Positions 534 to 62,490 of a stretch of DNA of 64,000 nucleotides are shown piece by piece. The position numbers and the translations under genes are program-made. The notes below the pieces were generated by a model. The model was not told the DNA's origin and made no database searches. It saw only the letters and a program-made list of their open reading frames with translations. Origin of the DNA: Kiritimatiellia bacterium (GTDB lineage: Bacteria; Verrucomicrobiota; Kiritimatiellia; RFP12; UBA1067); assembly GCA_041673345.1 (NCBI GenBank), contig JBAYXX010000004.1:4607-68606 (forward strand). The letters are read 5' to 3'. Within the stretch, counting starts at the first letter, position 1. Every line of letters starts with the position of its first letter.

Positions 534-539
534 AGTTTT

Positions 540-618
540 TAGGGAGTTGGAGGGGTTAGGGGGCTAGGGGTTAGGGAGTTGAAGGGGTTAGGGGTTAGGG
601 AGTTGAGGGGGTTAGGTG
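540..618. repeat. G-rich imperfect tandem repeat (unit ~16-17 bp, TAGGGAGTTGARGGGGT, with embedded GGGGTTAGGG)
   Basis: Read directly: tagggagttggaggggt / tagggggctaggggt / tagggagttgaaggggt / taggggt / tagggagttgagggggt / taggtgg. It starts 7 nt upstream of the hisS ATG, on the opposite strand. Confidence 0.9.
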
Positions 619-651
619 GCAAAGTTAACGCTGGTGAACGGGGCTGGTGTG

Positions 652-714
652 GTAGTCGAGTAAGTCGAGGTAGTCGAGGTGGTCGAGTAAATCGAGATAA
701 CCGAGAGACTCGAA
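652..714. repeat. 9-bp tandem repeat (GTAGTCGAG-like), 7 units
   Basis: gtagtcgag taagtcgag gtagtcgag gtggtcgag taaatcgag ataaccgag agactcgaa, read directly. Confidence 0.9.
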
Positions 715-763
715 GTGCTAACGGATACAGTTAATTCACATGCGTATTAATGCGCTAACAATC

Positions 764-1111
764 TCACAGGGGTGTGGGCGGTGGATTATCCAGCATTTCG
801 CGCATGCGTTTGCCGGGTTTAAATTTAATGACCTGCCGATTGGGAATGCGCACCTCGTTCTCCGGTTTGTTGGGGTTACGGCCAATACGTCCCTTACGTT
901 CAACCTTCTCAAAAACACCAAAATCGCGGAACTCAATGTGTTTGTTCTCACCGAGCGCGTCGATAATGCCATCGAGGGTCAGTTGTAGAATAGCTTGAAT
1001 CTGTGGCAGTGACAAGCCTTCGTGGGCGATGGCTTTGTTGGCTGCGATATAGGCTACCAGCTCTTTTTTTGTCAGTGAGGTTCCAGGGCCGAATTTTGTC
1101 TTTTCAATCAT
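764..1111 (-). CDS. HU/IHF-family DNA-binding protein
   Basis: 115-aa ORF. LTKKELVAYIA...LDGIIDALGENKHIEFRDFGVFEKVERKGRIGRNPNKPENEVRIPNRQVIKFKPGK matches the HU/IHF fold signature (R.GRNP.T.E...I......v.FKpgk). Confidence 0.9.
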   Translation of the reverse strand: MIEKTKFGPGTSLTKKELVAYIAANKAIAHEGLSLPQIQAILQLTLDGIIDALGENKHIEFRDFGVFEKVERKGRIGRNPNKPENEVRIPNRQVIKFKPGKRMREMLDNPPPTPL

Positions 1112-1184
1112 GTCAATATCCTCTTTATTAGTGTGTCTTGGTTCTCTAACCGATTATTGAGAAGTTACGTTTTACGTGGCTTGT

Positions 1185-3066: not shown

Positions 3067-3939
3067 ATGAATTTGAGGGAAAAAGGGTTCACGTTAATTG
3101 AGTTACTGGTCGTCATAGCGATCATAGGCATGCTGTCAGCCGCGCTGGTTTTGACATTCTCAAAGGCGGGAAGCATGGCGCGGGACATGTCATGCAAGGC
3201 CAACCTGAAAAACTTAGGGCAGGCCGCGATGGCCTATTCTGTGCAGCATGGGCATTTTCCTGAAGCCTACTCCTATGAATCGGAGAGCATCGGAATGTTT
3301 CAAGGAAGGCTTTCCAGAGTGTTTAATGAGCGCAAGGGCTGGGTAAACTGGACTGGCGCTGGCAGATGGACGAACACAGATTCGCAGGGAGGCCTAATGG
3401 ATCCGCCTACGATTACAGGTAAGCTGGCCTATGAGTCGATTACCAATGGCACCTTGTGGGCTGACACTGGCAAGGATCTCTCCACCTATCTGTGTTCCGC
3501 CTATAAAAAGGCTGCTAATACCGCAGGAGAAAAGGATGTGTGGCGGTCGTATGTGATGAACCACCGGTTCCACTGGCATCATCGCGGCAACAACATCGGG
3601 CTGAATATGCATTGGATCAGTCGCTTTACGGTGAGCGGAAACAAGGATACTGACCGTAGCGCAGAGATGGTTTTAATGTTTGCGGAGCTGCCGGCGAGCA
3701 ATATCGACACCTCGGAGGCGGCTGCGGATGGCAAGCTTGATCCACATAATGACAATGAACATATTGGTTTTAATCACCAAGTTGGAAAGCGCAATGTCGC
3801 GCATGTTGTTTTTGCGGATGGACATGTGGGAGTGCTGATGGAGCCTGTCGGTGCCAGCGAGCCAGATCTGCTGGACCTTACCAAGGATCTCTGCGATGGT
3901 AAGGCTATTCGAAAAGAGGTGCTCCAGCGAATGCGGTAA
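3067..3939 (+). CDS. Prepilin-type N-terminal cleavage/methylation domain protein (type II secretion pseudopilin-like, DUF1559/H-X9-DG-like C-terminus)
   Basis: N-terminus MNLREKGFTLIELLVVIAIIGMLSAALV (a G|FTLIE prepilin peptidase site plus a hydrophobic helix). The C-terminus ...NHQVGKRNVAHVVFADGHVGVL resembles the H-X9-DG motif of the expanded PVC pseudopilin-like family, though here the spacing is longer. Confidence 0.85.
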   Translation: MNLREKGFTLIELLVVIAIIGMLSAALVLTFSKAGSMARDMSCKANLKNLGQAAMAYSVQHGHFPEAYSYESESIGMFQGRLSRVFNERKGWVNWTGAGRWTNTDSQGGLMDPPTITGKLAYESITNGTLWADTGKDLSTYLCSAYKKAANTAGEKDVWRSYVMNHRFHWHHRGNNIGLNMHWISRFTVSGNKDTDRSAEMVLMFAELPASNIDTSEAAADGKLDPHNDNEHIGFNHQVGKRNVAHVVFADGHVGVLMEPVGASEPDLLDLTKDLCDGKAIRKEVLQRMR

Positions 3940-4025
3940 GAGCATTTTGTTGGTATGTTTTATGCCTATAATAGAGTAGGTTAGTTTTGAAAAGGTGCTG
4001 GAATAAACACAGTGTGGGTTTTAAT

Positions 4026-7000
4026 ATGAGATTTTACGTTAATATTTTTTATTCGCTGGTGCTGACAGCGGTATTCAGCTTGAGCGCAGCCGCGCAGTAT
4101 ACGGTGCTGCCTCCTGAGCGTATTATGCAGTTTGACGACTATGACAGCCCGCAATGGACGCATACAGGTGAAGTTGCGCCACCCAAAGGTGGCCAGCTCT
4201 TGAAGTACGGGACATTTCACACTCAAACTAATGGATGGCGTATATCTGAGGCCAGAACTGGTTATGCAGGGGGTTACGGGGTAGTCGTACCGCCGAAGGT
4301 GCTAGCAAATTACGCATGTAATCTAAGGAATCGCGCAGGGGCATTTATTGAGTCTCCTCTCTATCAAGATGGTGTGGGAACGATCTATTTTGAGACAGTT
4401 AACTCATTCCCATACGCTCCTGTTTATTTGCATGTGTATATAACAACAAACATGTTTGATTATAGTGAGTGGAAAAGTGTTGAATTGGGAGCGGCAGAGG
4501 GCGGAAGCATCTCCAATGTGTGGCATGAGATTGATGTTCTGAGTCTGAACTATACCGCGCAAGGTCAGTTTAGACGATATGTCAACACTCAGAACTATCG
4601 AGGAAAAATCAAGGTGAAGTTAGTCAGAGAGCTAAATAACCCTGATTATACAAGTGCGGATTATGATTTCTTGGTTATTGACAACATTAGGATCTCGGCT
4701 CCACCGACTGATGTGGAGATCGTTAAAACAGAGGTGGTCAGCAATCCAGGTTATCCTAATGTTGGCGCTGACTTCACGGTGCGTTGTCATGTGAGCAACA
4801 CGGATATGTTTGTGCCGACAACGAACCGCACGGTGTCTCTGGTGCATCGCTGGCGTTATCTTACGCAGCAGGTGGATGCTTGGCAGACCAACCAGATGGA
4901 GCATATTGCAGGTACTGTTGATGCCAACGGTAACGATGTGATCTACGAGTGTACCATCTCCGCTCCAGACCAAACCGGCGATATTGAATACTACTATATC
5001 TGTGTTTTCGGGGGCTATGTGTATAAGTCGCTGGATTACACCGGCTTGCCCCACACTTACCCCTCGGAGAATCTCTCCCCGCAGGTGTTCCGTGGAAATG
5101 CCGCTGAAGAGGGGGAGTTCACGCTGCGTCTGCGCGAGTTTATCTCCGAATACGGCGCGGTCTATGTTGTCAGCGACCAGCATCCCAAGCCGATTAAGAT
5201 GGAGTTGGTGGGCGACCATGACTGGCGCGGCATGGTGCCGCTCACCAACAACGCGCCAATGAATCTGAGCTGGAGTCTGATGGCGACAGGGGAGTATTTG
5301 CAGGATGCCGAGAGCTATGAGACCAATCGCACCTACTGGAGCGCCGGCACCTCGGTGAGCGGTACAGCGCCTAACCTGCCCTATGGGGGGCTCTTGGTTG
5401 AGACCAATGCGAGTGGCCGCCTGACAGTAAAGATTGAGGACACTGGCTACATGATGGTTTCATTCAAAAGCGATACGAGAGAATTCCTGATCAGCCGTGC
5501 CCAGTATCAGAACTTTAATCTCTGGCCAGCGCGCGATGATTACTTTTCAGAGAGCAGCGGTCAGGCTGACAAACAGCAGTTTGAGAACACCTTTAATGAT
5601 TGGCCTTTGAGTCAGGATCGGGTTTTCTTTGAGCCCTTCACGGCGTATGTGTCAAACACAAATGTGTTTCAGCGTGATCCTTTTAAAACGCCGTCGGATT
5701 GGGCCGCCGGCAGTGCAGCCTATGTCTCAGAGCGGATACTGGACTTAAATCACGGTCCAGCGGGCATTAACAACTACCGCAACCTGGCACTGCGTCTCAA
5801 AGGCGGCGACCCAGTGCTTGGCTTGGGGTATGTTCATAACATGCGAGCCACCCTGCCGGATGGGGTGAAGCAGATTAAATTCAAGGCGCGGGTGGGCCAG
5901 AAATCTGACAATACTCAGATTTGCTGGCACCGTGATTATTTTACAAAAAACAACTATGTGGTTAAAGTTATTGCTGGAGCTGGGGAAAAATCTCCGGAAA
6001 ACCCGTCGATATCTGTGATTTTTTACTACCAGGACCCCCAGAACTTCTATGAGTTCCGTGTGGTGCAGCGAGCTAATTCGGCAGATCGGCGCGGCAGTGT
6101 CAATGACAGGCGGGCAGACCTCATTCTTTATAAGTGGATTAACGGGGTGGCGTATGACTTGAAAAGATCGAGCCCAACCTCCAACATTGATTTAAGCTCT
6201 GCGATTGATGTTCAGGTTGGAGTTTATAATAAGAGTGCAACCGAGACTTATTTGAAATGCAAGTATGGTCTTCCAGCCTCTGCTATAACCTTGGATTACA
6301 CTGATTCAAGCGCCCCCTTCGTGAAGGGGACATTTGGCGTGCTTTCATCAGAGTGCTTCTCTGGTTTTTCGAAGATGAGCCTGGAAAACTCCAATGCCGC
6401 GGGCGATCCAGTCACACCTAAGATTGATGTGATCGGGCCCACTCATACTGAAATGACACCAGCGCAGATGAGCGGTTGGTTTGTTCCCGCAGGAGCATTC
6501 GAGTTCAATCTGGCTGTCTCCCGTCCCGGTATTTACAAGGTGAAACCGAATCAGAAGCTGGATGTGTATCTGCAGGAGACAGACTATGACATTAATTCGA
6601 CTGTGGAACCCTCCGCTTCGGGAACCTCAGCGTGGAAGAAGCTGACTCAAATCAGCGTGAATAGTTATGAATATGCCGATGTGTCGCTGGATATTAAGAG
6701 ATGGAAGGCGCATTTTGTGATGCTGCAGGTGGGCGCGGATGGTAGCGATGTGGCCGTGGATGAGCTGGAAATCCGCTCGTGGCATGGTCAGGAGATCGGT
6801 GAAGGAGCTAGCAAGAATAAGGAGTGGCTGGCCTCGGAGGCTTGGATTGTCTCCAATGGTGTTGGTGCCGCCGCCAATCAGGTGATGCACCTGGATCATA
6901 TTCGGGCTAACCCTGCTGAGGATCAGGCGGTTCAGTCGCCTTTGATGCAAAACGGTATGGGATTGATGGAGTTTGATTATCGCGTACTGCAGGCACCCGC

Positions 7001-9572
7001 CAAGTTGACTGTGCAATATAAGGAGCAGCGTGGGGGGGACTGGGTTGATGTGAGCAGCATTACAGTCACTAATGTGACTGAATGGGCACATTTGACCGCC
7101 TATCTGGGATCGTTTGAAGCCGGCAGGCTTAGAGTGCTGAACCAGCGCACAGCCACAATCACCAATGCAATGGTGGAGATCAACAATGTAATTGTCTGGG
7201 ATGAGCCTTTTGTGGATGACAAATCCTGGACTGCTTACAACACCATGATTACCTCGGCTGATCCAATGCGTCTGCTGCTGGATAAGAGCAAGGGGTGTTT
7301 CCTGAACAACAGCGAGACCGCAGGTGCCAACCCTTCGCCCATGGACAGGGATGTTCCGTATCTTAGGAGCCCCGCGCTAGTCACAGGTCTGGGAACGCTG
7401 ACCTTCAAGGCGCGGGCCTATGACCCAGGTCAACCGGGGACTCTTTATGTTTACGCCTCAACCAATGGATGGAATCTGGCACGTGAGTTTTGGGTTTTGG
7501 TCTACCAAGTTGACAACATTGATCATAAATATTACCAGACATACAGCTTCAAGCCGATTGAAGGGGCCAAATATGATGCGATCCGTTTAGAGACAGAGAT
7601 TGGACCGAGCGTGAAACGAGTCTGCGTTGAGGAGGTTCTTATCGCAGAGCCTGTGCATCCAGGGTTTGATATTGTCAATGTCCAGTTACGGTTGATTGAT
7701 AGTGAAGGGGGGCTGGGTCCTCGCCACCAGCCATTGGCTTTCGAGGATGTGCATGTTGAGGCCATGGTTGCTAATCAGCAGCTTTCACCCTCCAATATAG
7801 TCCTGTACGTGAGTTATTATGTCGGCGATGATGTCTGGGGCGTTGACAACTGGCCGGCAGAGGATGTTGTCACCAAGCGGATGCACCCGGTGGCAGGTGA
7901 GGCGAATCTCTATCGAACCAGAGATGACGATGGCGGTGTGCCAGGGCTCTCACAAAGCCTGATTGGCGGCATTGTGGGACAAACTGAGAGCGTGGTCGTG
8001 CAGTACCGTGTCTGGGCCAGCTACATGGGAGGCATTCCGCTCTTTAAGTATCAGAAGAGGGAGGCGTTTCAAACCCCTGCCTGGTATTATCCAATTGATC
8101 TCAATGTGCAGCGCAGTGCTGAGGGCTGGTCTCCCTACTACATGGTTTACGGGGTTCCTGAGCAGTCGGTCTGGGTGAATGAAATTAACGTGGGTGATGT
8201 CAGGTATGACGCAAACTACAACCAGATTCACGGTATCTGGGAGTGGGCGTATATTGAGATAGCAGTGCCGGCCTGGCTTGATCTTGGAGGCTGGAAAGTA
8301 GATTTGGTCACTCAGAACAGCTACACAACACATACCATCCAGATTCCACAGGGGCTGCCAGACCATACGTTAGTCACCAATGGCTACGCCTTCTTTGTGA
8401 TATCAGAGTCCAAGCGGCCGAGCGCGCAGACACCTATGTTACCTAAGTCAGACTTTGGTTATGCCGGGCTGGGTGCCGCCTTGCCGAGGAATGTTCCGGG
8501 TGGGATACGGTTGCGCAGGCCGGAGGGGATGTATGAGCAGGCGATCGCCTTTGATGATGCGAAGTACAATGGTTATGGAAGCAGTTATAGCGGTCGGTCC
8601 TGGGCTGAAAATGATCCGGAAGGGAAATTCGTGTATGTGGGCGCGGAGCAGAGAGAGGGATCGCTTTCTCGAATAGGCGATGGCGATTCCACTAATACTT
8701 GGGTCTATCCGCTCTTCCCGCAATGGACTCCTGAACATGCGGATTTTGCCAAGAACTATACCCCGGGAATGCCCAACGGCTTACAGCCGTTGCCAAACGG
8801 TGATGCACTCTTCCCGGGGACCTCCAACGCACTGATCAACTCAAGCGTCACGCAGTTGAAGGGAACTCAGAACGGACGCCGAGTCTTAAATTACTCCTTG
8901 CGTTTGCCCATTGGGACAACGACTAACATTGTTTATGATATTGATGATTGGTATCGCCTGGTCTCGCTCAAATCAAATAATGTGGAGCAGTTGCCGCCTG
9001 CGAGTGCCCTCACGAATTACAAATATGATGTGGTGCAGATTCAGGGTGGCACGACTCTGACAGCGAAGATCAACCTGCGCGAGGACTTACTGGAATATCA
9101 GAATGACTATGAAGTGTTGAACTGGGTCTTGGGCTTTACCGAAGGCCCGTTGATTCCAATGTTTTATAACGGCAGGAATCTGACGCTTAAGGAGCAACAC
9201 TGGCTGGATGCGAATCCAACGGCCTCCAACGAGTTCCGTTGTGTGATCAGAGATTTTTCGCTGGACGCCGCGACAAACCTGTACGTCCGCCTGGAGATGA
9301 AGTTGAACGAGGCTAATCTGGAAGAAATTCAAGGGGGAGCTGTTCTCAAACTGCAGTCAAAAAAGAATCTCACTGATAATAAGTGGGATATGCTTGCCCA
9401 GTTTTATCTGACACCTGCTTCATTTGATAGCAATAATGAGTGCCGTGTGTATGTCAAAAACCCATTCGGATACATTGTGACTGAATATGATCAGGGCAGG
9501 CTTTTCCTGCGCTGGGTGATTGAGATGGATGACCCCCGTGTGATAATTCAAAAGCTGGAAAATACGCCTTAA
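4026..9572 (+). CDS. Giant secreted protein (~1848 aa) with repeated beta-sandwich-like modules and a lamin-tail-domain-like segment; function unknown
   Basis: One uninterrupted ORF. I chose the internal ATG at 4026 because it yields a signal peptide MRFYVNIFYSLVLTAVFSLSAAAQ. The track start at 3987 is a TTG with no signal peptide. See findings for the module signatures. Confidence 0.8.
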   Translation: MRFYVNIFYSLVLTAVFSLSAAAQYTVLPPERIMQFDDYDSPQWTHTGEVAPPKGGQLLKYGTFHTQTNGWRISEARTGYAGGYGVVVPPKVLANYACNLRNRAGAFIESPLYQDGVGTIYFETVNSFPYAPVYLHVYITTNMFDYSEWKSVELGAAEGGSISNVWHEIDVLSLNYTAQGQFRRYVNTQNYRGKIKVKLVRELNNPDYTSADYDFLVIDNIRISAPPTDVEIVKTEVVSNPGYPNVGADFTVRCHVSNTDMFVPTTNRTVSLVHRWRYLTQQVDAWQTNQMEHIAGTVDANGNDVIYECTISAPDQTGDIEYYYICVFGGYVYKSLDYTGLPHTYPSENLSPQVFRGNAAEEGEFTLRLREFISEYGAVYVVSDQHPKPIKMELVGDHDWRGMVPLTNNAPMNLSWSLMATGEYLQDAESYETNRTYWSAGTSVSGTAPNLPYGGLLVETNASGRLTVKIEDTGYMMVSFKSDTREFLISRAQYQNFNLWPARDDYFSESSGQADKQQFENTFNDWPLSQDRVFFEPFTAYVSNTNVFQRDPFKTPSDWAAGSAAYVSERILDLNHGPAGINNYRNLALRLKGGDPVLGLGYVHNMRATLPDGVKQIKFKARVGQKSDNTQICWHRDYFTKNNYVVKVIAGAGEKSPENPSISVIFYYQDPQNFYEFRVVQRANSADRRGSVNDRRADLILYKWINGVAYDLKRSSPTSNIDLSSAIDVQVGVYNKSATETYLKCKYGLPASAITLDYTDSSAPFVKGTFGVLSSECFSGFSKMSLENSNAAGDPVTPKIDVIGPTHTEMTPAQMSGWFVPAGAFEFNLAVSRPGIYKVKPNQKLDVYLQETDYDINSTVEPSASGTSAWKKLTQISVNSYEYADVSLDIKRWKAHFVMLQVGADGSDVAVDELEIRSWHGQEIGEGASKNKEWLASEAWIVSNGVGAAANQVMHLDHIRANPAEDQAVQSPLMQNGMGLMEFDYRVLQAPAKLTVQYKEQRGGDWVDVSSITVTNVTEWAHLTAYLGSFEAGRLRVLNQRTATITNAMVEINNVIVWDEPFVDDKSWTAYNTMITSADPMRLLLDKSKGCFLNNSETAGANPSPMDRDVPYLRSPALVTGLGTLTFKARAYDPGQPGTLYVYASTNGWNLAREFWVLVYQVDNIDHKYYQTYSFKPIEGAKYDAIRLETEIGPSVKRVCVEEVLIAEPVHPGFDIVNVQLRLIDSEGGLGPRHQPLAFEDVHVEAMVANQQLSPSNIVLYVSYYVGDDVWGVDNWPAEDVVTKRMHPVAGEANLYRTRDDDGGVPGLSQSLIGGIVGQTESVVVQYRVWASYMGGIPLFKYQKREAFQTPAWYYPIDLNVQRSAEGWSPYYMVYGVPEQSVWVNEINVGDVRYDANYNQIHGIWEWAYIEIAVPAWLDLGGWKVDLVTQNSYTTHTIQIPQGLPDHTLVTNGYAFFVISESKRPSAQTPMLPKSDFGYAGLGAALPRNVPGGIRLRRPEGMYEQAIAFDDAKYNGYGSSYSGRSWAENDPEGKFVYVGAEQREGSLSRIGDGDSTNTWVYPLFPQWTPEHADFAKNYTPGMPNGLQPLPNGDALFPGTSNALINSSVTQLKGTQNGRRVLNYSLRLPIGTTTNIVYDIDDWYRLVSLKSNNVEQLPPASALTNYKYDVVQIQGGTTLTAKINLREDLLEYQNDYEVLNWVLGFTEGPLIPMFYNGRNLTLKEQHWLDANPTASNEFRCVIRDFSLDAATNLYVRLEMKLNEANLEEIQGGAVLKLQSKKNLTDNKWDMLAQFYLTPASFDSNNECRVYVKNPFGYIVTEYDQGRLFLRWVIEMDDPRVIIQKLENTP

Positions 9573-9595
9573 AAATGAGGCACTTCATAATGCGC

Positions 9596-9742
9596 TCAAA
9601 CGCCGCGCAGGGTTTTGACAATAAAGCCGAGCAGAATCAGCAGCGCAACGACGATCAGGGCTTTGCGTTCACTGGGTGTCAGCCAGGTGAACAGCGGCGT
9701 GCGCTTCCCTGGGAAGAGATCATGTGTTTTTTTGGAGTCCAT
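9596..9742 (-). CDS. Candidate 48-aa single-pass membrane protein (below the ORF-track length cutoff)
   Basis: Manual translation: MDSKKTHDLFPGKRTPLFTWLTPSERKALIVVALLILLGFIVKTLRGV*. It has a polar N-terminus and one clear TM helix. GAAGGA lies about 12 nt upstream of the ATG. It sits in the gap between the giant gene and leuS. Confidence 0.35.
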   Translation of the reverse strand: MDSKKTHDLFPGKRTPLFTWLTPSERKALIVVALLILLGFIVKTLRGV

Positions 9743-9848
9743 CTCAATTGATTCCTTCTCTTTTGTACTCCCTAATCCTCTTATTTCTGAACTGGCAGAG
9801 GTTGCATCAGTATGATACTATATTTTCCCAAAAGCATGGGATATTAAT

Positions 9849-12419
9849 ATGACAAACAATGAATACGATTTTGCGGCCATAGAAAAAAAATGGCAGTCTT
9901 ACTGGGAGGAACATAAAACATTCAAGGTGAATGATTTTGAGGAGGGTAAACCAAAGTTTTACTGTCTCGATATGTTTCCTTACCCCAGCGGCGCCGGCTT
10001 GCATGTTGGCCACCCCGAAGGTTACACTGCCACCGATATACTGTGTCGCTACAAGCGTATGTGTGGTTACAATGTGCTGCATCCAATGGGGTGGGACGCG
10101 TTCGGCCTGCCAGCCGAGCAGTATGCGGTTGAGACCGGCACCCATCCGGCGGTGACCACTGAAAAAAATATTAATAATTTCAGGAAGCAGATCAAGGCGC
10201 TTGGGTTCAGCTATGACTGGGATCGGGAAATCAACACTACTGATCCAGGTTATTACAAGTGGACCCAATGGATCTTTACCAAGCTCTATGAAAAGGGACT
10301 TGCTTATATTGCTGAAGCCCCGGTGAACTGGTGCCCGACACTAGGAACTGTGCTTGCCAATGAGGAAGTGATTAACGGACGCAGTGAGCGCGGAAACCAC
10401 CCAGTGGAGAGAAGGCCCATGCGGCAGTGGATGCTGCGTATCACTAATTATGCTGAGCGCCTGTTGAATGACCTCGATGATCTGGATTGGCCGGAGGGCA
10501 TCAAAGAGATGCAGCGCAACTGGATCGGCAGATCAAACGGTGCTGAGGTTGAATTTGAAATTGCCGGAATCGAAAAATCAGTGATGGTTTATACCACTCG
10601 CCCTGATACGCTGTTTGGTGCCACCTATATGGTGCTCGCCCCCGAACATGAGCTGGTGGAGCTGGTGGTCAGCGACGAGCAGCGCGCCGCCGTGGCTGCG
10701 TATTGCAAGGCCGCAGTTTTTAAAAGTGATATGGACCGCACCGAATTGAACACCGACAAGACCGGAGTTTTCACCGGCGCATACGCAATCAACCCTGTGA
10801 CAGGCGGAAAGATTCCTCTCTGGATTGCCGACTACGTGCTGATCAGCTATGGCACGGGAAGTATCATGGCTGTGCCCGCGCATGATGAGCGTGACTTTGA
10901 GTTCGCCAAAAAGTTTGATATTCCTGTTAAATGTGTTATCACCCCGGATGCCGCGAGCGCGGCGGCTCAGGGCGTGAGTGTCGAGGCAGTGCTGCGCGGT
11001 GAGTGTAGCTGGAGCGGTGCAGGCACGATGATCGACTCCGCAAATGATTGCGGCCTGGACATCAATGGGCTGGAGGTTGCGCAGTCGATTGCACGGACGA
11101 TTGAGTGGCTCGAAAAGTCAGGCATCGGCAAAGGGGCGGTTAAGTATAAACTGCGCGACTGGCTGTTCAGCCGCCAGCGCTACTGGGGTGAGCCATTCCC
11201 GTTGATCCACATGGAGGATGGCAGCACCAGGCTGGTTGCGCAAAGCGACCTGCCGCTGACGCTGCCGGAGATGCAGGACTTTAAACCGAACGCGGATGGA
11301 GCCCCTCCCCTGGCTAAGGCAACTGAGTGGCTCACCTATGTTGATCCTGTCACTGGCCTGAAAGGGCGGCGTGAAACCAATACCATGCCGCAGTGGGCCG
11401 GTTCCTGCTGGTATTACCTGCGTTACATTGACCCGCACAACTCCGAGGCCGCCTTTGACCAGGCAAAAGAGCGCTACTGGATGCCGGTGGACCTCTACGT
11501 GGGTGGTGCTGAGCACGCTGTCTTACATCTGCTTTACGCGCGTTTTTGGCATAAAGTCCTCTTTGATCTAGGTTATGTCTCTACCTGCGAGCCATTTAAA
11601 AAGCTGGTCAACCAGGGGATGATTCTGGGTATCTCCTATAAGGATAGTCGTGGAACACTGGTTCCCATGGAGCAGGTTGACATGCGCTCTGAGGGTGTCT
11701 TTCACACTGAGAGCGAGGAGCGGTTGGTTGAGTTTCCCGCCAAAATGTCTAAATCATTGAAAAATGTTGTTAACCCGGATGATGTGATTTTTGAGTACGG
11801 CGCTGACAGTATGCGTTTGTATGAGATGTTCATGGGGCCTCTGGAAGCGGTTAAGCCTTGGAACACCAAAGGCGTTGAGGGGGTGTTCCGCTTCTTAAAA
11901 CGCGCCTACCGTATGGTGGTTGAACAGACTTTGACCGATGAACCGCTCGACGAAGATGGGCTGCGCGTTTTGCATGCGACCATCAAAAAGGTCACCGACG
12001 ATCTGGAGTCCATGAGCTTCAACACCGCGATCAGCCAGATGATGATCTTCGTCAACAACTTCTCGGGCAGCCAAAAGACGCTCAACCGCCAGGCGGCCGA
12101 GACCTTTGTGTTGCTGCTCGCTCCCTTTGCGCCGCATGTGTGTGAAGAGCTGTGGGCGCACCTGGGCCACAACACAACCCTCGCTTATGCCCCCTGGCCC
12201 CAGTATAATGAGGATTTTATCAAGGTAGCCCAGGCGGAGGTGCTGGTGCAGGTCAATGGCAAACCCAAAGCCCGCATCATGATGGAGGCGGATCTGGGCG
12301 AGGAGCTGATGCGAGCGGCCGCGCTGGAGGGCGAGGCGGTACGCACGGCGATCGGTCAAAAAAAGATCGTCAAGGTGGTTTGTGTGCCTAATCGTCTGGT
12401 TAACATTGTGGCACTCTAA
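9849..12419 (+). CDS. leuS: Leucyl-tRNA synthetase
   Basis: 856-aa ORF with [18 protein letters not shown] (HIGH region), KMSKSLKN (KMSKS) and a CP1 editing domain. Confidence 0.97.
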
Positions 12420-12480
12420 AACATCTTTGTCGCGAACTTTGCCGGAGAGAGCGTCTGTTCGGTTGCAATGCGAGTCGCAG

Positions 12481-12535
12481 CTGTAGGGCTGCCGGCCGTG
12501 ACCGCGCCAACTGCGGTCACGGCCAGCGGCTACAG
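12481..12535. repeat. 55-bp hairpin, compact member of the CTGTAG...CTACAG inverted-repeat family
   Basis: ctgtagggctgccggccgtgaccgcg ccaact gcggtcacggccagcggctacag. The arms match the termini of the 115-bp elements at 17575 and 24800. It lies 60 nt downstream of the leuS stop, so it could also act as a terminator. Confidence 0.8.
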
Positions 12536-12549
12536 TGCTTCGTAAAAAC

Positions 12550-12630
12550 GTAGGTCCGATTTCCAATCGGGCATGTCCGGTTGGAAACCGGACCTACTGA
12601 AACTCGGCTTCGCCTTTGGTTGACGACACT
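12550..12630. repeat. 48-bp palindrome GTAGGTCCGATTTCCAATCGG.CATGTCCGGTTGGAAACCGGACCTAC plus adjacent TGA..TCGGCTTCGCCTTTGGTT module (copy 1)
   Basis: Read directly. A near-identical ~80-bp copy lies at 14226-14303 and a half copy at 56072-56092. Confidence 0.9.
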
Positions 12631-13047
12631 AAACCCTGATAAACATTCGATAGGCAACTTTTTTGAAAGAACAAGTAATTGTTCTTTTGAGCCAGCTAAA
12701 CGGCTCATGTGGCAGCAACGCACGTTTGTGGGACAATTAGACCCACTTTGGTGTGACACCGCAGCTCCGTCTTTTACCAAATGAGCTGATTAGAATGTGT
12801 TTTAGTCGAAAAAGGAGTGATTTGAGCGGCACGATTAAGCTGGTATGGTACTTGCTTTAAAAAGTAACGTTGTCACATTACGAGTAAGGAATCAGAGGTC
12901 AGAATTCAGGATTCAGAAGGTAGCGGGCTACGCGGCTGCGCCGCGAAAAAACGGTTACTTTTCAATAACCGGTTAGAGAAAATAACACGCTGAAGCGTGA
13001 ACAACAAACGGTTGCTGCGTAAGGTTTGTTGTCCAGCCTTTAGGATG

Positions 13048-13250
13048 TTCCATTTGAGGTTATAGGCAAGCCCGCCGCGGGGCGCGCTGCGAAAAAACGA
13101 TGGGGTAACTCGACGGTCAAACGCATCGGAGTCGGGGTCGGTATCGGAATCGGGGTCGACCTAGTACGTTTTTCGATACCGATTCCGATAGCGACCCCGA
13201 CCCCGAGTTACAGACACGAAACTGTGACAAAATGGTGAGTTATAGGCAAG
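13048..13250. repeat. Single inverted copy of the 188-bp repeat unit that is arrayed at 55420-55950 (bounded by GTTATAGGCAAG)
   Basis: The reverse complement of 13048-13250 aligns by eye over its whole length with 55489-55690. It contains the ~85-bp GGGGTCGGGGTCGGTATCGGAATCGG...CCGATTCCGATAGCGACCCCGACCCC imperfect palindrome at 13124-13207. Confidence 0.9.
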
Positions 13251-13966: not shown

Positions 13967-14225
13967 ATTCGTGCGGTGTACGAACGGCATAGCGCATAGC
14001 GCATAGCGTAACAGGCATGAGGATGAAACGGTATGCGAACGAGCAACCGCCTTCCCTCGACGCTCTGCGCTATGCAAAACAGAATTTTAACCACCGGCAA
14101 CATGTTTTTAAGGACCGACATGTTTGCCTTGTCCTTTGGTAAGGGGTTAAGTCCGCGCGGAGCGCGGAGTAAATAAGTGCGCGAGTGCGTTAGTGAAGAG
14201 GTCGAGCCTTTTGTGTGGGAGCAAC

Positions 14226-14303
14226 GTAGGTCCGATTTCCAATCGGACATGTCCGGTTGGAAACCGGACCTACTGAGGTTCGGCTTCGCCTTTGGTTTAC
14301 GAT
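14226..14303. repeat. 48-bp palindrome plus TGA..TCGGCTTCGCCTTTGGTT module (copy 2, same orientation as copy 1)
   Basis: gtaggtccgatttccaatcggacatgtccggttggaaaccggacctactgaggttcggcttcgcctttggtttacga, against 12550-12630. Confidence 0.9.
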
Positions 14304-14486
14304 GCTGTGCGACGATGCTGGTCGACGATTTTTAAGGGCGGAGTTTTGAATCGTAATCCGCTATCGCTTGCCATGCCGAACGACTGGAAGGCGGGTCGCA
14401 CAGCATCGTCAACCGATGCCGCTCATTGAGTGGCTACTATATCAAAAACGAAGTTTAAAATTATTATAAAAAAGGAAAAGCAACTG

Positions 14487-17543: not shown

Positions 17544-17574
17544 GCACTTTTAATCAACAGCAGCTAGCGCAGCA

Positions 17575-17689
17575 CTGTAGCCGCGGGCCGTGACCGCGGT
17601 TGGCGTGTTTATGGCCAGTCGCCAAGCGTCTCGGCTCGCGAAGCACAGCACTTTCGTTTGCCGGCGCGTTCACGGCCCGCGCCCTACAG
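17575..17689. repeat. 115-bp element with ~28-bp terminal inverted repeats (CTGTAGCCGCGGGCCGTGACCGCGG ... CCGGCGCGTTCACGGCCCGCGCCCTACAG), MITE/REP-like, copy 1
   Basis: Read directly. A second 115-bp copy lies at 24800-24914, with conserved termini and a partly conserved core (...CGGTTTGCGAAGCAC.ACA.T.TCGTTTG.CGGCGCG...). Confidence 0.85.
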
Positions 17690-17808: not shown

Positions 17809-17857
17809 CCCACTCTCTGCCCTGCCCGGAATTCAATCAACTATTTGAATTTTGTTG

Positions 17858-42469: not shown

Positions 42470-42489
42470 CAAGAGAAGGGCGGAACACT

Positions 42490-46037: not shown

Positions 46038-46085
46038 AGGCCTTAAAAATGATACAGTAAAAAGAACAAGGGGTTATCCCCTCGG

Positions 46086-46139
46086 CTGGATATTTGCAAC
46101 AAGCATGACATGACCAACCTGTCGATCTTCAGCATCTGA
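46086..46139 (+). pseudogene. Relic of the last 17 codons plus stop of exbD, carried along by a segmental duplication
   Basis: ctggatatttgcaacaagcatgacatgaccaacctgtcgatcttcagcatctga, against 42416-42469 ctggacatctgcaacaagcatggcatgaccaacctgtcgatcttcagcatctga (LDICNKHGMTNLSIFSI*). No upstream exbD body is present here. Confidence 0.85.
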
Positions 46140-46159
46140 CAAAAGAAGGGAGGAACACT

Positions 46160-48985: not shown

Positions 48986-49314
48986 AAAGTGTGATGCTTT
49001 TTAAGAGCATAGCGCATAGCGCAGAGGGCATAGCGCAGCTTTTGTCGCTTAGGCGACTAGAAAGAACAATTAATTGTTCTTCCCCAAAAGTTGTTTGTCG
49101 AGCATTAAAAGGCGTTTAGTGTAGTAGTCGCTCTATGAGCGACATATGCCGCTCGTAGAGCGGTTGGCCAAATTCCAGGCCGCTCGTAGAGCGGTGTCGG
49201 TTGACGATGCTGTGCGACGATAGCGGATTACGATTAAAAACCCCGCCCTTGAAAATCGTCGACCAGCATCGTCGCACATCATCGTCAACCAAAGGTGACG
49301 CCAAATGGCGGTTG

Positions 49315-50560: not shown

Positions 50561-50642
50561 CCGGGGTCGGGGTCGCTATCGGAATCGGTATTGAAAAACG
50601 CATAAAAACGACCCCGATGCCGACTCCGACACCGACTCCGAG
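50561..50642. repeat. Copy of the ~85-bp GGGGTCGGGGTCG...CGACCCCGA imperfect palindrome
   Basis: ccggggtcggggtcgctatcggaatcggtattgaaaaacgcataaaaacgaccccgatgccgactccgacaccgactccgag. Compare 13124-13207, 55535-55622 and 55722-55809. Confidence 0.85.
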
Positions 50643-50832
50643 TTGCATGGCAGCACCTATCGACTGCGAAACCGACCTTCATCCAGCACATGCCGCTCAC
50701 AGAGCGGCTACTACACTGTCGGCTGGCACCGTTACTTGGACCCAGTTTCAATTTTGTGCCATTCTGACGCAATTTCAGACAACATGTCGCTGGAAATCAA
50801 TGCAAATCATTATTTTTGCGCCCTTTTCAGGT

Positions 50833-52454: not shown

Positions 52455-52530
<76 letters not shown>

Positions 52531-52565: not shown

Positions 52566-52600
52566 GCCGGGATCCGTAAAAAGATCCCGGCCTTTTTGTG
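52566..52600 (+). terminator. Rho-independent terminator candidate
   Basis: GCCGGGATC cgtaaaaa GATCCCGGC followed by CTTTTTGTG. It is ~110 nt downstream of htrA. Confidence 0.7.
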
Positions 52601-52800
52601 CTTCTGCTATTGACAACGCTCGGCAAATGATTGAGAATCATCCCCCTGTTGGATATAATCGCTGTTTGTTGTTCACGCTTCAGCGTGCTCTTTGTTCTCT
52701 AACCGTTGGTTATTGAGGAGTTACGCTTGTTGCCCGTTGGCTGGGCAGTTTACGCGAGACGCCTTTTTTGGGTGGTACCAACAAGTTGGAGGGGTGATTT

Positions 52801-54997: not shown

Positions 54998-55034
54998 GAC
55001 AAAAAGTTCTGTTTTAACTTACATAACTGACATA

Positions 55035-55072
55035 CAAGGGTCTGCGGTTCACCGCAGGCCCTTGTTGTTTTT
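55035..55072 (+). terminator. Rho-independent terminator candidate
   Basis: CAAGGGTCTGCGG ttca CCGCAGGCCCTTG followed by TTGTTTTT. It is 38 nt after the stop at 54997. Confidence 0.75.
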
Positions 55073-55419
55073 AATAAACACCTCCATCTTTAAACCCCTT
55101 CAATCTTTTGACTTTTTAACCCTTGCTATGCGCGCACGGAGCGCGGAGAGAGGCTGCGCCTTCGGCTTACGATAGCGGCGGCGATGACGACCGACGATTT
55201 TCAAGGCCGTGATTTTTAATCGTAACCCGCTATCGCATGTCACGCCGAACGATTGAAAGGCGGGTCTCGTCCAAAGCCGCTCTGTGAGCGACACTAAACA
55301 TGCAAGGCCGCTCATAGAGCGGCTACTACACCGAACGACAACTCTTGCATTCCGTAGTGCAGCGCATGTGTAGTAGTCGCTCTGTGAGCGACACACCGAA
55401 CGACAACTTTTGCATTGTT

Positions 55420-55950
55420 CCTTGCCTATAACTTGACCTCTTTGGTCTAGTTACCCTAGCGTTTTTTCGCGGCGCAGCCGCGCGGAGGGCTTGCCTATAA
55501 CTCGACCATTTTGTCACAGTTTCGTGCCTGTAACTCGGGGTCGGGGTCGGTATCGGTATCGGTATCGGTATCGAAAAGCGTACGAGGTCGACCCCGATTC
55601 CGACCCCGACCCCGACTCCGATGCAGCTGACCGTCGAGTTACCCCATCGTTTTTTCGCGGCGCAGCCGCGCGGCGGGCTTGCCTATAACTTGATCACTTA
55701 GTCGTAGTTTCGTGTCTCTAATTCGGGGTCGGGGTCGGGATCGGAATCGGTATCGGTATCGAAAAGCGTACGAGGTCGACCCCGATTCCGATCCCGACCC
55801 CGACTCCGATGCAGCTGACCGTCAAGTTACCCCAGCGTTTTTTCGCAGCGCAGCCGCGCGGCGGGCTTGCCTATAACTCGGCCATTTTGTCGCAGTTTCG
55901 TGCCTATAACTCGGGGCCGGGATCGCTATCGGCATCGGTATCGAAGGACG
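55420..55950. repeat. Tandem array (~2.7 copies) of a 188-bp composite repeat unit
   Basis: The landmark GTTACCCC recurs at 55450, 55638 and 55826 (period 188). CTTGCCTATAAC recurs at about 55421, 55489, 55677 and 55865. Each unit contains the GGGGTCGG...CCGACCCC palindrome. Confidence 0.9.
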
Positions 55951-56124
55951 CACGGAAATGTTCTCCAACCTCCGGCTTATCTCTTGCAAGGTACGCCACA
56001 GTCCAGGCTACGGGTCGTTTTTTTGACCTGATGACCTGGTGACTCGGTGGCATTGCTTACTGACCCGAACTCCGATTGGAAATCGGACCTACGCTGCTCC
56101 CGCGCCAAAGGCGCGACCTCCTCC

Positions 56125-56243
56125 AAACGCATAGCGTTTGTTACTGTAACAGCGGGCTCTTAAGCATCCAACCTTCAATGAGGGCGCGTAACTTTCGCAC
56201 ATTACGCAGACTCAATTTAGCTTCAGGCAAAAGCTGCTTTAGT
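56125..56243. repeat. ~120-bp interspersed repeat, copy 2 (see 36330-36450)
   Basis: aaacgcatagcgtttgttactgtaacagcgggctcttaagcatccaaccttcaatga...aaaagctgctttag. Confidence 0.8.
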
Positions 56244-59743: not shown

Positions 59744-59969
59744 GTTTACCCTTTCTCTAAAAAATCGGACGAATCGAAACAACCGACTGCTTCGATTCTG
59801 TAATGCAGGTTTGGCTTAAGCCAAGGAACAACCCAAATAGCTTCACCATAGCACTAAGATTAACACAAAAATAGTTTACCCATTTCCCCTCCCAAATGCA
59901 ACAGTAAAAAAATTATGTAAAAAAATTATGCTATAATTAAAGTTCGCGACAAAGAGAAGAAAACAAGAA

Positions 59970-60956
59970 ATGAACGAAACCTCAAATAAAAACACCCATG
60001 TCACTTCCAACGGTCTATGGAAGTTCGCTGCTGGCTGCATTGACGCGGCGGTCGCGTTGGGAGTTTTTTTCACCTTTGCCGCGCTTCTGGGCCGGTTTCA
60101 CTGGATGCTTGATATCTTCAGTCAGGTAAAGCAGACACTGGCACTTTGTTTTCTGGGATTCGTGATCTACAAATTCATCTGCGGCAGCTACCGAACAGCG
60201 GCTTTGGCGCTGATCCCGCTAATGCTGAACGCAGTTCCTCCACTGCTTCTATTCCTACCGCAGCAGGCGCGGATTGCACCTAGATCCCCTGTAAAGATTA
60301 GAATTCTGCAAGCCAACGTGCTTTCGTCCAATCACAATTTTGAGGCCCTGCTTGAGTTGATCCAGCAATCTGATCCTGATGTGATTGTGCTGCAAGAAAT
60401 CACCCGACAATGGCTCAGGGAGCTGGTCGTCCTCAAAACAGAGTACCCAGTGAGCGCGGCCTTCCCGCGTGAGGATAATTTTGGTGTGGCAACCTTCTGC
60501 CGATACACCAATGCAACCGCACGAATTCTTTTTCTCAGTGATCCTAACATGCTTCCGCGCTCCCGCGTTGATCTGAGTGTGAACAACAAAACATTGACCG
60601 TCACCGGTGTCCACCTGCTGCCGCCTTTGGGCCACGCTTATTGGAGTGAACGCAACTGGTATGCTGAAAAATTGGCGGCAGAACTGGCCCAGATTGACAA
60701 TGCGCAGATTGTCACTGGCGACATGAACAACGCCCCTTGGGCAGCGCGGTTTAACGATTTCACCAAAGCCAGCGGACTGCTTGACTGCGCCCAAGGCAGA
60801 GGCGCGCTGGCCACTTGGCCAACCTTTCTTCCGCCAGGGTTCCGGCTGCCGCTGGACCACTGCTTTCACTCAAAAGATGTGATTATCACAGCCCGCCGAC
60901 GCGCCTCGAAAATTGGGTCGGATCATTTTCCAATGGTGATCGACGCTGAGTTCTAG
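59970..60956 (+). CDS. Endonuclease/exonuclease/phosphatase (EEP) family protein with N-terminal membrane anchor
   Basis: 328 aa with three N-terminal hydrophobic helices. IRILQANVLSSN..., DVIVLQEI, C-terminal [13 protein letters not shown] (EEP catalytic His motif). Confidence 0.85.
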   Translation: MNETSNKNTHVTSNGLWKFAAGCIDAAVALGVFFTFAALLGRFHWMLDIFSQVKQTLALCFLGFVIYKFICGSYRTAALALIPLMLNAVPPLLLFLPQQARIAPRSPVKIRILQANVLSSNHNFEALLELIQQSDPDVIVLQEITRQWLRELVVLKTEYPVSAAFPREDNFGVATFCRYTNATARILFLSDPNMLPRSRVDLSVNNKTLTVTGVHLLPPLGHAYWSERNWYAEKLAAELAQIDNAQIVTGDMNNAPWAARFNDFTKASGLLDCAQGRGALATWPTFLPPGFRLPLDHCFHSKDVIITARRRASKIGSDHFPMVIDAEF

Positions 60957-62356
60957 CAGGAGTGCCGCCCATCATGCTCTGGCAGATCAATCCCCAGCGC
61001 GCGGATTTTGCGGAAGAGCGTAGTCTTGTGGATCCCCAGCTCTTTGGCAGCCGCCAGGCGATTACCGCCTGTGCGTTGCAGTGCCTCGCGGATGGCCCGT
61101 GCGTCGAGCGCCTCGCGGGCCTCGCGCAGCCCTTTCGCACTGGAACCAACACGGCTGATCCCGAGGCTCGTCAACGTCTCCGGCAGATGGATTAAGTCGA
61201 TGCGCCCTGATCCGCACAGGATAAAAGCGCGTTCAATGATATTCTCCAGCTCGCGCACGTTGCCTGGCCAGCTGTGCGCCATCAACAACGAGAGCGCCTC
61301 AGGCGTGATACCGGCAACTGTCTTGCCCTGCAAGCGGTTGAAATGATCAATGAACTGCTCCACCAGTAACGGGATGTCCTCCTGACGGCTGCGGAGTGGC
61401 GGTAGATCAATGCGCACCACGTTGACCCTGTAATAAAGATCCTCACGGAACGCACCCGTACGACACTCTTCCAAGAGATCGAGGTTGGTGGCAACAATCA
61501 CCCGCACATCCGCCTTCTCGGAGCTTATTGAACCGAGCGGTTCGTAAACGCGTTCCTGAAGCACACGCAGTAACCGCACCTGCAGCGCCGGGCTGATCTC
61601 GCCAATCTCATCGAGAAGCAGCGTGCCGCCCTTGGCTAGCGCGAAACGTCCAGGCTTATCCTTGTTCGCGCCGGTAAAGGCACCCGCCTTGTAGCCGAAA
61701 AGTTCCGACTCCAGCAGTGTATCTGGCAGCGCGCCACAGTTGACAGCCACAAAGGGCCCGCCAGCCCGCGGACTGAGCGAGTGCAGCGTACGCGCCATCA
61801 GCTCCTTACCGGTGCCTGTCTCGCCCTGAATCAGCACCGTGCTGGGGCTCGCCGCAATCGCAGGCAGCACCTCGAACAGTTTCTTCATCGCAGGGCTGTG
61901 ACTGACCAACTCGCCCACACGCACACGCCCTGCCAGCTCGCGGCGCAATGCGTCAATCTCCGAAAGATCACGAAATGTCTCAGCGCCGCCAATCACAACA
62001 CCATCCGCATCCTTGAGCACAGCCGTTGAAATGCTGATTGGAATCCGATCTCCCTCGGCGTTGATGATATAGCCAGATTTACCGATGATCGGACGCCCTG
62101 TTTTTAACGTCTGTTGCAGCGCGCACTCCGTGCCGCACATGCTGGAGCGAAAGACCTCAGCGCAGCGCTGGCCGATCGCCTCCTCGCGCGGCACTCCGGT
62201 GATCTCCTCCGCCGCTCGGTTAAACGAGGTCACGCGCCAATGCTCATCCACAGTAAACACCCCATCCGAAATACTCTCCAAAATCGCTTCAGTGACATTG
62301 AGGTCGCTGGCATGGGTGCTACATTTGGAGGTCAACGGTTTTTTATCAAATTTCAT
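60953..62356 (-). CDS. Sigma-54-dependent transcriptional activator (PAS sensor - AAA+ - Fis-type HTH)
   Basis: 467 aa. PAS-like N-terminus ([30 protein letters not shown]), Walker [22 protein letters not shown] loop, ESELFGY, C-terminal HTH ([16 protein letters not shown]). No receiver domain. Its 3' end overlaps the convergent EEP gene by 4 nt. Confidence 0.93.
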
Positions 62357-62430
62357 TTCCCTTCAGTATGCTCTTTTTCGGAGTTTTCCTCAAGTCACTT
62401 TTTTGCGACTTTTTTGCGACGGAAGTTTAG

Positions 62431-62466
62431 GATTGTGATTAAGATTAAGATTAAGATTAAGACTAG
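62431..62466. repeat. Hexanucleotide repeat (GATTAA)x4, flanked by degenerate units
   Basis: gattgt gattaa gattaa gattaa gattaa gactag, read directly. It lies between the Sel1 gene and the sigma-54 activator gene. Confidence 0.95.
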
Positions 62467-62490
62467 GAGGGGAAATTCTTTTCCCTCCTA
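62464..62490 (-). terminator. Hairpin overlapping the Sel1-gene stop codon (possible terminator)
   Basis: TAGGAGGGGAAA ttc TTTTCCCTCCTA. On the minus strand it is followed by gtcTTAATCTTAATCTTAATC, which is only moderately U-rich. Confidence 0.4.

Follow-up and report, generated by a model that had tools for sequence, protein, structure and literature searches.

In Escherichia coli, bacterial interspersed mosaic elements (BIMEs) are mosaics of Y and Z repetitive extragenic palindromes (REPs) set in alternating orientation, and a mosaic bound by IHF, DNA gyrase or Pol I is typical of them. REPs themselves are imperfect palindromes of 20-40 nt that fold into a stem-loop. The REPs of E. coli and Pseudomonas, the SMAGs of Stenotrophomonas and others make up the GTAG superfamily of Di Nocera et al. 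(2013; PMC3733652), which reaches the Planctomycetes-Verrucomicrobia-Chlamydiae (PVC) group with families in Opitutus terrae (Verrucomicrobia) and Rhodopirellula baltica. Tags, subfamilies with complementary stems, clusters, several families per genome and REPtrons are described in the survey of this superfamily, as are head-head and tail-tail dimers with spacers of 1-2 nt or 20-100 nt (PMC3733652). In REPINs, the unit of duplication is an inverted REP doublet with a conserved spacer, and single genes for REP-associated tyrosine transposases (RAYTs) are flanked by REPs (Bertels and Rainey 2011, PMC3116915). Here, we have analyzed 64,000 nt of a Kiritimatiellia bacterium (assembly GCA_041673345.1, contig JBAYXX010000004.1, positions 4,607 to 68,606; hereafter the window), whose spacers carry nine recurrent sequence modules. 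We consider it likely, with a probability of roughly 0.8, that the long spacers of this Kiritimatiellia genome hold small, non-autonomous repeats of the REP/REPIN/BIME type, and that those with a GTAG tag (modules 2, 3 and 4) were most likely spread by RAYTs. This is a known REP/REPIN/BIME-RAYT system and not a new one, with Kiritimatiellia as an added bacterial group. A system studied almost wholly in Proteobacteria is thereby extended to a group for which a literature search linking REPs with Kiritimatiellae found no paper.

The intergenic fraction of the window is ordinary (13.5%, 8.5 kb), and 2.5 kb of it (30%) is covered by repeats when only matches within the window are counted. With the loci of relatives as the database, the coverage rises to 3.7 kb (43% of the intergenic DNA), and coding DNA has a single match of 65 nt. 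Every repeated segment of the window found by repeat search and self-BLAST is intergenic, with the exception of one paralogous gene pair. The intergenic segments are:

First half of the window: 12494-13250, 14186-14438, 17567-17689, 24564-24914 and 27543-27591
Second half of the window: 36329-36447, 49061-49305, 50562-50641, 52664-52724 and 55159-56242

The original prediction, made from the window alone, had proposed nine modules, and all nine are present, at or within ~10 nt of the positions given there and far beyond chance. Its statement that almost every spacer longer than ~150 bp is built from them was too broad, as modules are found in 10 of 10 spacers of at least 300 bp and in none of the five of 150-300 bp. 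Spacer 534-763, which it had counted as module-built, holds none of the nine and consists of short tandem arrays only. Nor is the diversity and density of modules as unusual as it had suggested, since several GTAG families per genome are known from O. terrae, R. baltica, Stenotrophomonas and others, according to the superfamily survey (PMC3733652).

Modules 2, 3 and 4 share a common plan, in which GTAG is followed by a short GC-rich hairpin with a stem of 6-8 bp and a loop of 3-7 nt. Module 2 is GTAG-GTCCG(R)TT-TCC-AA(Y)CGGAC (23 nt, 8-bp stem), module 3 is GTAG-CCGCGG-GCCGTGA-CCGCGG (~23 nt, 6-bp stem), and module 4 is GTAG(Y)CGCTC-NNN-GAGCG(R)C (20 nt, with a 7-bp stem that takes in the G of the tag). 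Against dinucleotide-preserving shuffles, pattern searches of the window gave five matches for module 2 and eight for module 4, with 0.00 expected in both cases. The tag is present in five of five module-2 and six of eight module-4 copies, and is visible at the ends of module 3 as well. There are ~21 GTAG REP monomers in the 64-kb window, all of them extragenic. Their arrangement is as follows:

12550-12597, plus strand: module 2, head-head heterodimer of the GTAG REPs GTAGGTCCGATTTCCAATCGGgC and (minus strand) GTAGGTCCGGTTTCCAACCGGAC, with 2 nt between them
14226-14273, plus strand: module 2, second head-head heterodimer, in the A-type/G-type order of 12550-12597
56072-56092, minus strand: module 2, lone A-type REP monomer
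12476-12542, strand not assigned: module 3, compact head-head palindrome GTAGGGCTGCCGGCCGTGACCGC / GCGGTCACGGCCAGCGGCTAC
17567-17689, plus strand: module 3, REPIN-like doublet of 123 nt, with a GTAG-tagged hairpin at each end, GTAG outside and a ~60-nt spacer
24792-24914, plus strand: module 3, second REPIN-like doublet of 123 nt
24654-24751, both strands: module 4, tail-tail heterodimer of a C-type REP (24654-24673, minus) and a T-type REP (24732-24751, plus) with a 58-nt spacer
55273-55392, mixed strands: module 4 cluster of a degenerate REP (55273-55292, plus), a C-type REP (55307-55326, minus) and a T-type REP (55373-55392, plus), the last two forming a tail-tail heterodimer with a 46-nt spacer
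49124-49198, plus strand: module 4 cluster of a T-type GTAG REP (49124-49143) and two untagged GCCGCTCGTAGAGCGG hairpins (49146-49165 and 49179-49198)
14418-14437, minus strand: module 4, single diverged REP with two mismatches
50692-50711, minus strand: module 4, single C-type REP

The two module-3 doublets are 84% identical over their full 123 nt, spacer included, which indicates that duplication acts on the doublet as a whole. Folded as single strands, the DNAs of modules 1, 2, 3 and 8 and of the module-4 pair are much more stable than shuffled sequences (z of -4 to -8). Among the GTAG modules, z is -7.6 for the module-2 dimer at 12550-12597 (-19.6 kcal/mol), -4.9 for the module-3 doublet at 17567-17689 and -4.1 for the module-4 heterodimer at 24654-24751.

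Stem statistics were drawn from 162 copies of module 4 and 234 of module 2, taken from the window together with the loci of relatives and of metagenomes. The paired fraction of stem cells, 90% for module 4 and 92.5% for module 2, is inflated because copies were gathered with a pattern that allows only 3-4 mismatches. The Y and R positions were free to vary in that pattern, so their covariation is unaffected by the mismatch limit. At the main variable pair, module 4 switches between C-G and U-A (15 versus 15 distinct sequences) and module 2 between G-C and A-U (24 versus 18), with few mixed forms, and none of 500 shuffles reached the observed pairing or covariation. The stems of modules 2 and 4 are maintained through compensatory changes. 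In these wider sets G4 of the tag is at least 90% conserved, the preceding GTA being demanded by the selection pattern.

The two stem variants also govern how REPs are paired. Head-head dimers of module 2 are heterodimers in 49 of 61 cases, and those of module 4 in 24 of 26; tail-tail pairs of module 4 are heterodimers without exception (27 of 27), and tandem pairs of either module are of the same stem type. Spacers within dimers fall into discrete classes of 2, 4, 9, 46 and 58 nt, the latter two being those of module-4 pairs. Three coexisting GTAG families with a clean two-variant heterodimer rule offer comparative material on the asymmetry of REP doublets and on recognition by RAYTs.

These features closely follow the GTAG superfamily as surveyed before (PMC3733652). 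The terminal GTAG, the GC-rich 6-8-bp stem and the 3-7-nt loop are the same; subfamilies arise through complementary stem changes, with some G-T pairs; dimers with 1-2-nt spacers are found in the O. terrae families GTAG-17 and GTAG-19; and clusters, several families per genome, an extragenic location and RAYT genes flanked by the cognate REP are shared as well. The likeness is one of build, in tag, stem and loop lengths and dimer types, as distinct from stem and loop sequence, for which 24 consensus sequences are published (PMC3733652). Two differences are that the host phylum, Kiritimatiellota, lies outside that survey (PMC3733652), and that intragenic copies were not seen in the window. The BIMEs of E. 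coli are similar in that their clusters are built of two REP variants in alternating orientation, form mosaics with other motifs and differ in composition from site to site. The sequences here are, however, unrelated to Y and Z REPs, and the window adds modules that are not REPs to a minimum of three GTAG families, in each of which two variants follow a rule of their own. As in REPINs (PMC3116915), an inverted doublet with a conserved spacer appears as the duplication unit, in the 123-nt module-3 doublets, in module-4 pairs with 46- or 58-nt spacers, and in a 66-nt heterodimer present in one of two related loci (L024) and absent from the other (L015). The reading of the repeats as BIME- or REP-like in the original prediction is thus upheld for three modules, as GTAG hairpins in head-head and tail-tail heterodimers and in clusters, with dispersal over many contigs in relatives.

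That dispersal was seen in a census of one genome per species (596 Gb) with the module-4 pattern GTAGYCGCTCTRTGAGCGRC, which returned at least 42 loci. Among the matches listed, 31 loci lie on at least 28 contigs of the Kiritimatiellae metagenome-assembled genome (MAG) JAQUCE01. This MAG and the window share a syntenic stretch of 6.9 kb with 86% identity in coding DNA, and the window therefore comes from a related Kiritimatiellia species. The other listed loci belong to two Kiritimatiellae, two 'Lentisphaeraceae' and one 'Verrucomicrobiota' MAG; three single matches in Chloroflexota and Actinomycetota are consistent with the ~9 chance matches estimated for 596 Gb. Modules 1, 2, 3, 4, 6, 7, 8 and 9 all recur in the loci of the genome census. 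A metagenome scan with module 2 added at least 117 loci (885 kb) from several samples, which contain every module but module 5. Rfam had no match to the window repeats at the gathering threshold, and at E≤1 returned only spurious microRNA-precursor matches on long hairpins.

The census bears directly on the possibility that the modules are limited to this contig, as products of local duplication or of faulty assembly. Local amplification is seen in the three tandem 188-nt units at 55445-56008, and mis-joins at repeats are possible in short-read assemblies. Against this, 28 or more contigs of another genome and no fewer than 117 metagenome loci from several samples carry the same modules, so that confinement to the window, which the original prediction had named as the result that would reduce its claim to local duplication, is not what is found. 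An independently assembled metagenome contig in ENA is 100% identical across 8849-13222, thus through the spacer 12420-13222, and ends 14 nt past the module-1 palindrome; the spacer sequence is therefore reproducible, which argues against an artefact. We regard this explanation as refuted by the census and hardly credible.

Many of the metagenome contigs (L045, L046, L087, L088, L101, L102 and others) begin or end less than 100 nt from a module-2 REP; the repeats break short-read assemblies of uncultured Kiritimatiellia, with contigs ending at repeats. A 97-nt tRNA-Gly (tcc) called by ARAGORN at 14204-14300 is no tRNA, being the module-2 REP dimer with its flanks, and this dimer is likely to give rise to false tRNA annotations in Kiritimatiellia genomes of this kind. 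For both reasons, the assembly and annotation of MAGs from this group would benefit from a library of these repeats.

In the mechanism that we propose, modules 2, 3 and 4, as GTAG stem-loops found mostly as inverted heterodimers of two stem variants and in clusters, would be the substrates of a single-copy HUH/Y1 transposase (RAYT) that binds the REP hairpin in single-stranded DNA, as established for Proteobacteria. The enzyme would cut beside the GTAG/CTAC tag and then rejoin the ends. REP doublets would thereby be copied or moved, preferentially beside existing REPs, giving rise to mosaics.

Candidate enzymes are encoded in related DNA. The 885 kb of metagenome loci contain five Y1_Tnp genes, each above the PF01797 cutoff. 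One of them, on the 1,012-nt locus L102, lies between inverted module-2 REPs whose GTAG ends face outward; of these two REPs, GTAGGTCCGGTTTCCAACCGGAC is an exact match to the G-type variant of the window, and the other is GTAGATCCGGTTTTCAGCCGGAC. An 83%-identical relative on L166 is likewise placed between inverted module-2 REPs with GTAG outside. As judged from their sequence, these two loci are REPtrons for module 2. Seven proteins were scanned against NCBIfam (P0001 of L102, P0002 of L166, P0111, P0048 and the products of the genes of L131, L113 and L055), and for all seven the best family is 'REP-associated tyrosine transposase' (NF047646, E of 1e-13 to 1e-24), with the IS200 family weaker or absent. 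HGH/HVH and YI..NP motifs are visible in the RAYT-like proteins. At E≤1e-10 their family has 1,333 members, with MAGs of Kiritimatiellia, Spartobacteria and Planctomycetes among the sources, and some members are named RayT by JGI. The RAYTs P0111 and P0048 of Kiritimatiellia MAGs (L161 and L163) have GTAG REPs of their own in flanking arrays, and the family members of L167 and L168 are flanked by GTAGG-stem REPs built like module 2. L113 and L131 combine the module repertoire of the window with a Y1 transposase gene on the same contig, the gene being flanked by other hairpins, and no flanking inverted repeats were seen for the Y1 genes of L055 and L094. Single RAYT genes flanked by REPs are also the pattern of known REPIN/RAYT systems (PMC3116915); the clade found here is, unlike known RAYTs, divergent and falls under the NCBIfam equivalog cutoff.

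The search for a RAYT suggested in the original prediction was therefore productive in part, with RAYT-like genes flanked by module-2 REPs in related DNA and none in the window. Two further observations concern individual RAYT genes. That of L131 (Ga0265294_10000066, 3839-5131) lies between sufS and a sufU/iscU-like gene and is flanked by a hairpin of its own, GGGAGCGCCRACGTCCTCGTYGGC, with five copies upstream and two downstream, which is rare elsewhere (L018, L030 and L072); this hairpin class is absent from the window, and the L131 enzyme was set aside as a candidate for the window modules. The near-identical Kiritimatiellia assemblies L163 and L164 (99.5-99.8%) differ by ~430 nt in a tandem array of ~120-nt REP units (6690-7300 of L163) downstream of the same RAYT gene, through either a change in copy number or assembly collapse.

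Several observations weigh against spread by RAYTs. Neither the 64-kb window, the only part of its genome searched, nor the 310 kb of loci from JAQUCE01 and other MAGs encodes a Y1/HUH transposase, be it RAYT or IS200-like. Searches by phmmer with the sequences of E. coli RayT and IS608 TnpA gave no match in the window or the genome loci, and a Pfam scan of ten small or unidentified open reading frames of the window gave HU, ExbB/ExbD, TPR, ABC and a PDDEXK_2 stub, with Y1 transposase absent. Genes between inverted module copies in the loci of relatives were considered as mobilisers and set aside as ordinary housekeeping genes, judged from their translations. The RAYT-like proteins score below 80 bits, the NCBIfam equivalog cutoff, with the L131 protein as the sole exception, and a PDB sequence search with the module-2 RAYT gave no detectable relative. 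The two REPtron contigs are only ~1 kb long and cannot be assigned to an organism. The loci searched yielded a cognate transposase neither for modules 3 and 4 nor for modules 1, 5, 6, 7, 8 and 9, which are not of the GTAG type. Spread by RAYTs, which the genome of the window would itself encode outside the analyzed stretch, nevertheless remains our preferred explanation for the GTAG modules.

Comparison of relatives, one of the checks suggested in the original prediction, reveals differences in REP content. Relative to L015, which is ~92% identical, L024 carries a block of ~135 nt more next to a resident REP. It consists of three module-4 REPs, two of the T type and one of the C type, and terminates in a repeat of the 3' flank of the resident REP. 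A further extra block in L024 is the 66-nt heterodimer, of T-type and C-type REPs. In the spacer that precedes the gene at 36673, the window and JAQUCE01 are homologous only over the ~120 nt before the start codon, and different modules lie beyond. REP units are acquired, lost and reshuffled as species diverge, preferentially beside existing REPs. Slippage or unequal recombination, and not transposition, could account for gain and loss beside resident REPs, a further point against RAYT action. Taken with the RAYT genes flanked by module-2 REPs in related DNA, such gain or loss of units between relatives agrees with the dispersal or recombination mechanism that had been envisaged.

The modules could instead be cis elements selected by the host, as stabilisers of mRNA 3' ends, terminators, nucleoid-protein sites or insulators, with mobility irrelevant or extinct. 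Compensatory changes do preserve the stems, both copies of module 5 begin ~20 nt past a stop codon, divergent (promoter-only) spacers hold only one of the ~21 GTAG REPs, and host roles of this kind are known for E. coli REPs, according to the GTAG survey (PMC3733652). Likewise, module-2 REPs lie shortly past the leuS stop codon both in the window and in L083, where leuS is 76% identical. The arrangement differs, however, in that the window has a head-head dimer at a distance of 130 nt and L083 three tandem monomers that abut the stop codon, and the module content of orthologous spacers is entirely different. Terminator-like sites are not enriched (11 against 8.1±2.9 and 15 against 15.5±3.7 expected), the REP hairpins are without T-tracts, and the clear intrinsic terminators in the spacers, at 55034-55075 and 52566-52601, are unique sequences, which tells against the terminator role offered earlier. 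A promoter scan of the window gave no enrichment. Modules occur in both orientations and in all types of spacer, and host selection leaves the REPtrons unexplained. We therefore consider it unlikely as the primary explanation; a host role is compatible with spread by RAYTs as a secondary, exapted function, which the REPs may have acquired.

Modules 1 and 8 have no GTAG tag and are longer hairpin-forming elements, resembling miniature inverted-repeat transposable elements (MITEs), that accompany the REPs. Their copies are:

13059-13250, minus strand: module 1, composite unit of ~190 nt, inverted relative to the array at 55445, with an 85-nt palindrome at 13124-13208
55445-56008, plus strand: module 1, three tandem units of 188 nt with 100, 91 and 69% identity
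50562-50641, plus strand: module 1, palindrome alone
27553-27598, plus strand: module 1, left-arm half copy fused to a different, likewise recurrent right part, with an identical junction in L114
14279-14416, plus strand: module 8, MITE-like element of ~135 nt with terminal inverted repeats of ~20 nt, GGTTKACGATGCTGTGCGAC (z -4.0)
49200-49305, minus strand: module 8, inverted copy, 91% identical over 88 nt to 14279-14366
24555-24657, strand not assigned: module 8, partial or rearranged copy
55159-55260, plus strand: module 8, partial copy

The repeat search places the module-1 palindromes at 13126-13206, 50562-50641, 55535-55621 and 55723-55809, with half copies at 27553-27598 and 55907-55962. 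Their arms are made of 4-7 TCGGNN hexamers, variable between copies, around a conserved asymmetric 20-nt center, CGAAAAGCGTACGAGGTCGA. Each unit of the array at 55445-56008 (Tandem Repeats Finder: period 188, 2.7 copies, score 830) comprises a CGCGGCGCAGCCGCG hairpin, a GCCTATAAC motif and the hexamer palindrome, of which the third unit has the left arm only. The unit at 13059-13250 folds with a z of -8.0. As parts of module 1 also occur separately and in other combinations, its description as a mosaic is accurate.

In their size (85-190 nt), long inverted arms, occurrence in both orientations and intergenic position, modules 1 and 8 are like MITE-type repeats such as Correia/NEMIS, ERIC, RUP and the terminal-inverted-repeat (TIR) families near TIRYT genes. 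They are unlike these in that inverted arms are present, but neither target-site duplications around the copies nor, in 1.3 Mb of loci of relatives, a parent insertion sequence with matching ends was found. Module 1 differs further in its arms of variable TCGGNN hexamer arrays around a conserved asymmetric center, an arrangement for which our literature search found no description.

Could the whole repeat population consist of MITEs derived from DDE-type insertion sequences, with the GTAG tags a coincidence and RAYTs not involved? The long terminal inverted repeats or arms of modules 1 and 8, which have no GTAG, would fit, as would a DDE transposase that adjoins REPs in L083 and another DDE transposase gene on L163. 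The missing target-site duplications and parent element just described speak against it, the tag is found on all of modules 2, 3 and 4, and module 2 flanks RAYT genes; for the set as a whole we consider this origin very improbable. It could nonetheless hold for modules 1 and 8 alone. In another view, to which we give little weight, module 1, and possibly module 8, would form a separate class of intergenic element that is not mobilised by RAYTs, module 1 being the ~190-nt oriented unit. The 6-bp periodicity of TCGG in module 1 could mark a series of sites bound by a nucleoid protein or a regulator; alternatively, module 1 could be the substrate of an unrecognised mobilising enzyme of Kiritimatiellia. 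With RAYTs as the preferred agents for the GTAG modules, those without the tag, and foremost the hexamer-array palindrome of module 1, are the least explained parts of the system.

The remaining modules have two copies each in the window:

13987-14010, plus strand: module 5, three GCATAGC heptamers, 20 nt past a stop codon
49007-49037, plus strand: module 5, 4.4 GCATAGC heptamers, 21 nt past a stop codon
36329-36447, plus strand: module 6, unit of ~120 nt with a CCAAACGCNNNGCGTTTG hairpin at its 5' end
56123-56242, plus strand: module 6, second copy, 76% identical over 92 nt (full extents from self-BLAST)
12975-13009, plus strand: module 7, CACGCTGAAGCGTG hairpin with a AACAACAAAC tail
52664-52698, minus strand: module 7, inverted copy
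12623-12702, plus strand: module 9, 80-nt unit with the core palindrome GAAAGAACAAGTAATTGTTCTTT at 12665-12687 (z -3.1)
49046-49125, minus strand: module 9, inverted copy, 73% identical, with its core palindrome at 49060-49082

The heptamer array of module 5 gave five matches against 0.01 expected from dinucleotide-preserving shuffles, and it has no match in the 1.3 Mb of loci of relatives. The overall fold of module 6 is no better than that of shuffled sequences (z -0.1). Together with the short tandem arrays, modules 5, 6, 7 and 9 are low-copy companions of the REPs, whose form is probably due to slippage and to recombination between neighbouring repeats.

Short-period tandem arrays occupy 539-616, 651-705, 17722-17809, 24501-24539 and 52457-52509 in the spacers, and are of several types: a G-rich GGGGTTAGGG type, the 9-mers AGTCGAGGA and CTCGATTCC, ATCTCA x6.5 and (AC)27. 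The G-rich array has nine BLAST matches in the loci of relatives, and its spacer, 534-763, adjoins a gene for an HU-family DNA-binding protein (764-1111, minus strand).

Elements outside the nine modules were also encountered. A small hairpin, GCGCGGAGCGCGGAG, is found at 14150-14170 and 55125-55150, at the edges of two module clusters. A dispersed element of ~72 nt has copies in L113, L074, L095, L109 and L060, that of L113 lying ~270 nt upstream of the Y1 transposase gene; its position in the window is:

25159-25230, plus strand: dispersed ~72-nt element

Just downstream of it, 25280-25400 (plus strand) encodes the first ~40 codons of a PD-(D/E)XK transposase (PF12784, 27.8 bits), a remnant that is cut off by the end of an oxidoreductase gene and has no further copy in the loci of relatives.

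The only repeated coding DNA is the paralogous pair, with a self-BLAST match of 42415-44072 to 46085-47892. The two genes (42376-44073 and 46160-47893) lie downstream of ExbB/ExbD genes and are 92% identical over their first 300 nt versus only 71-76% beyond, which suggests gene conversion or a recent partial duplication at their 5' ends.

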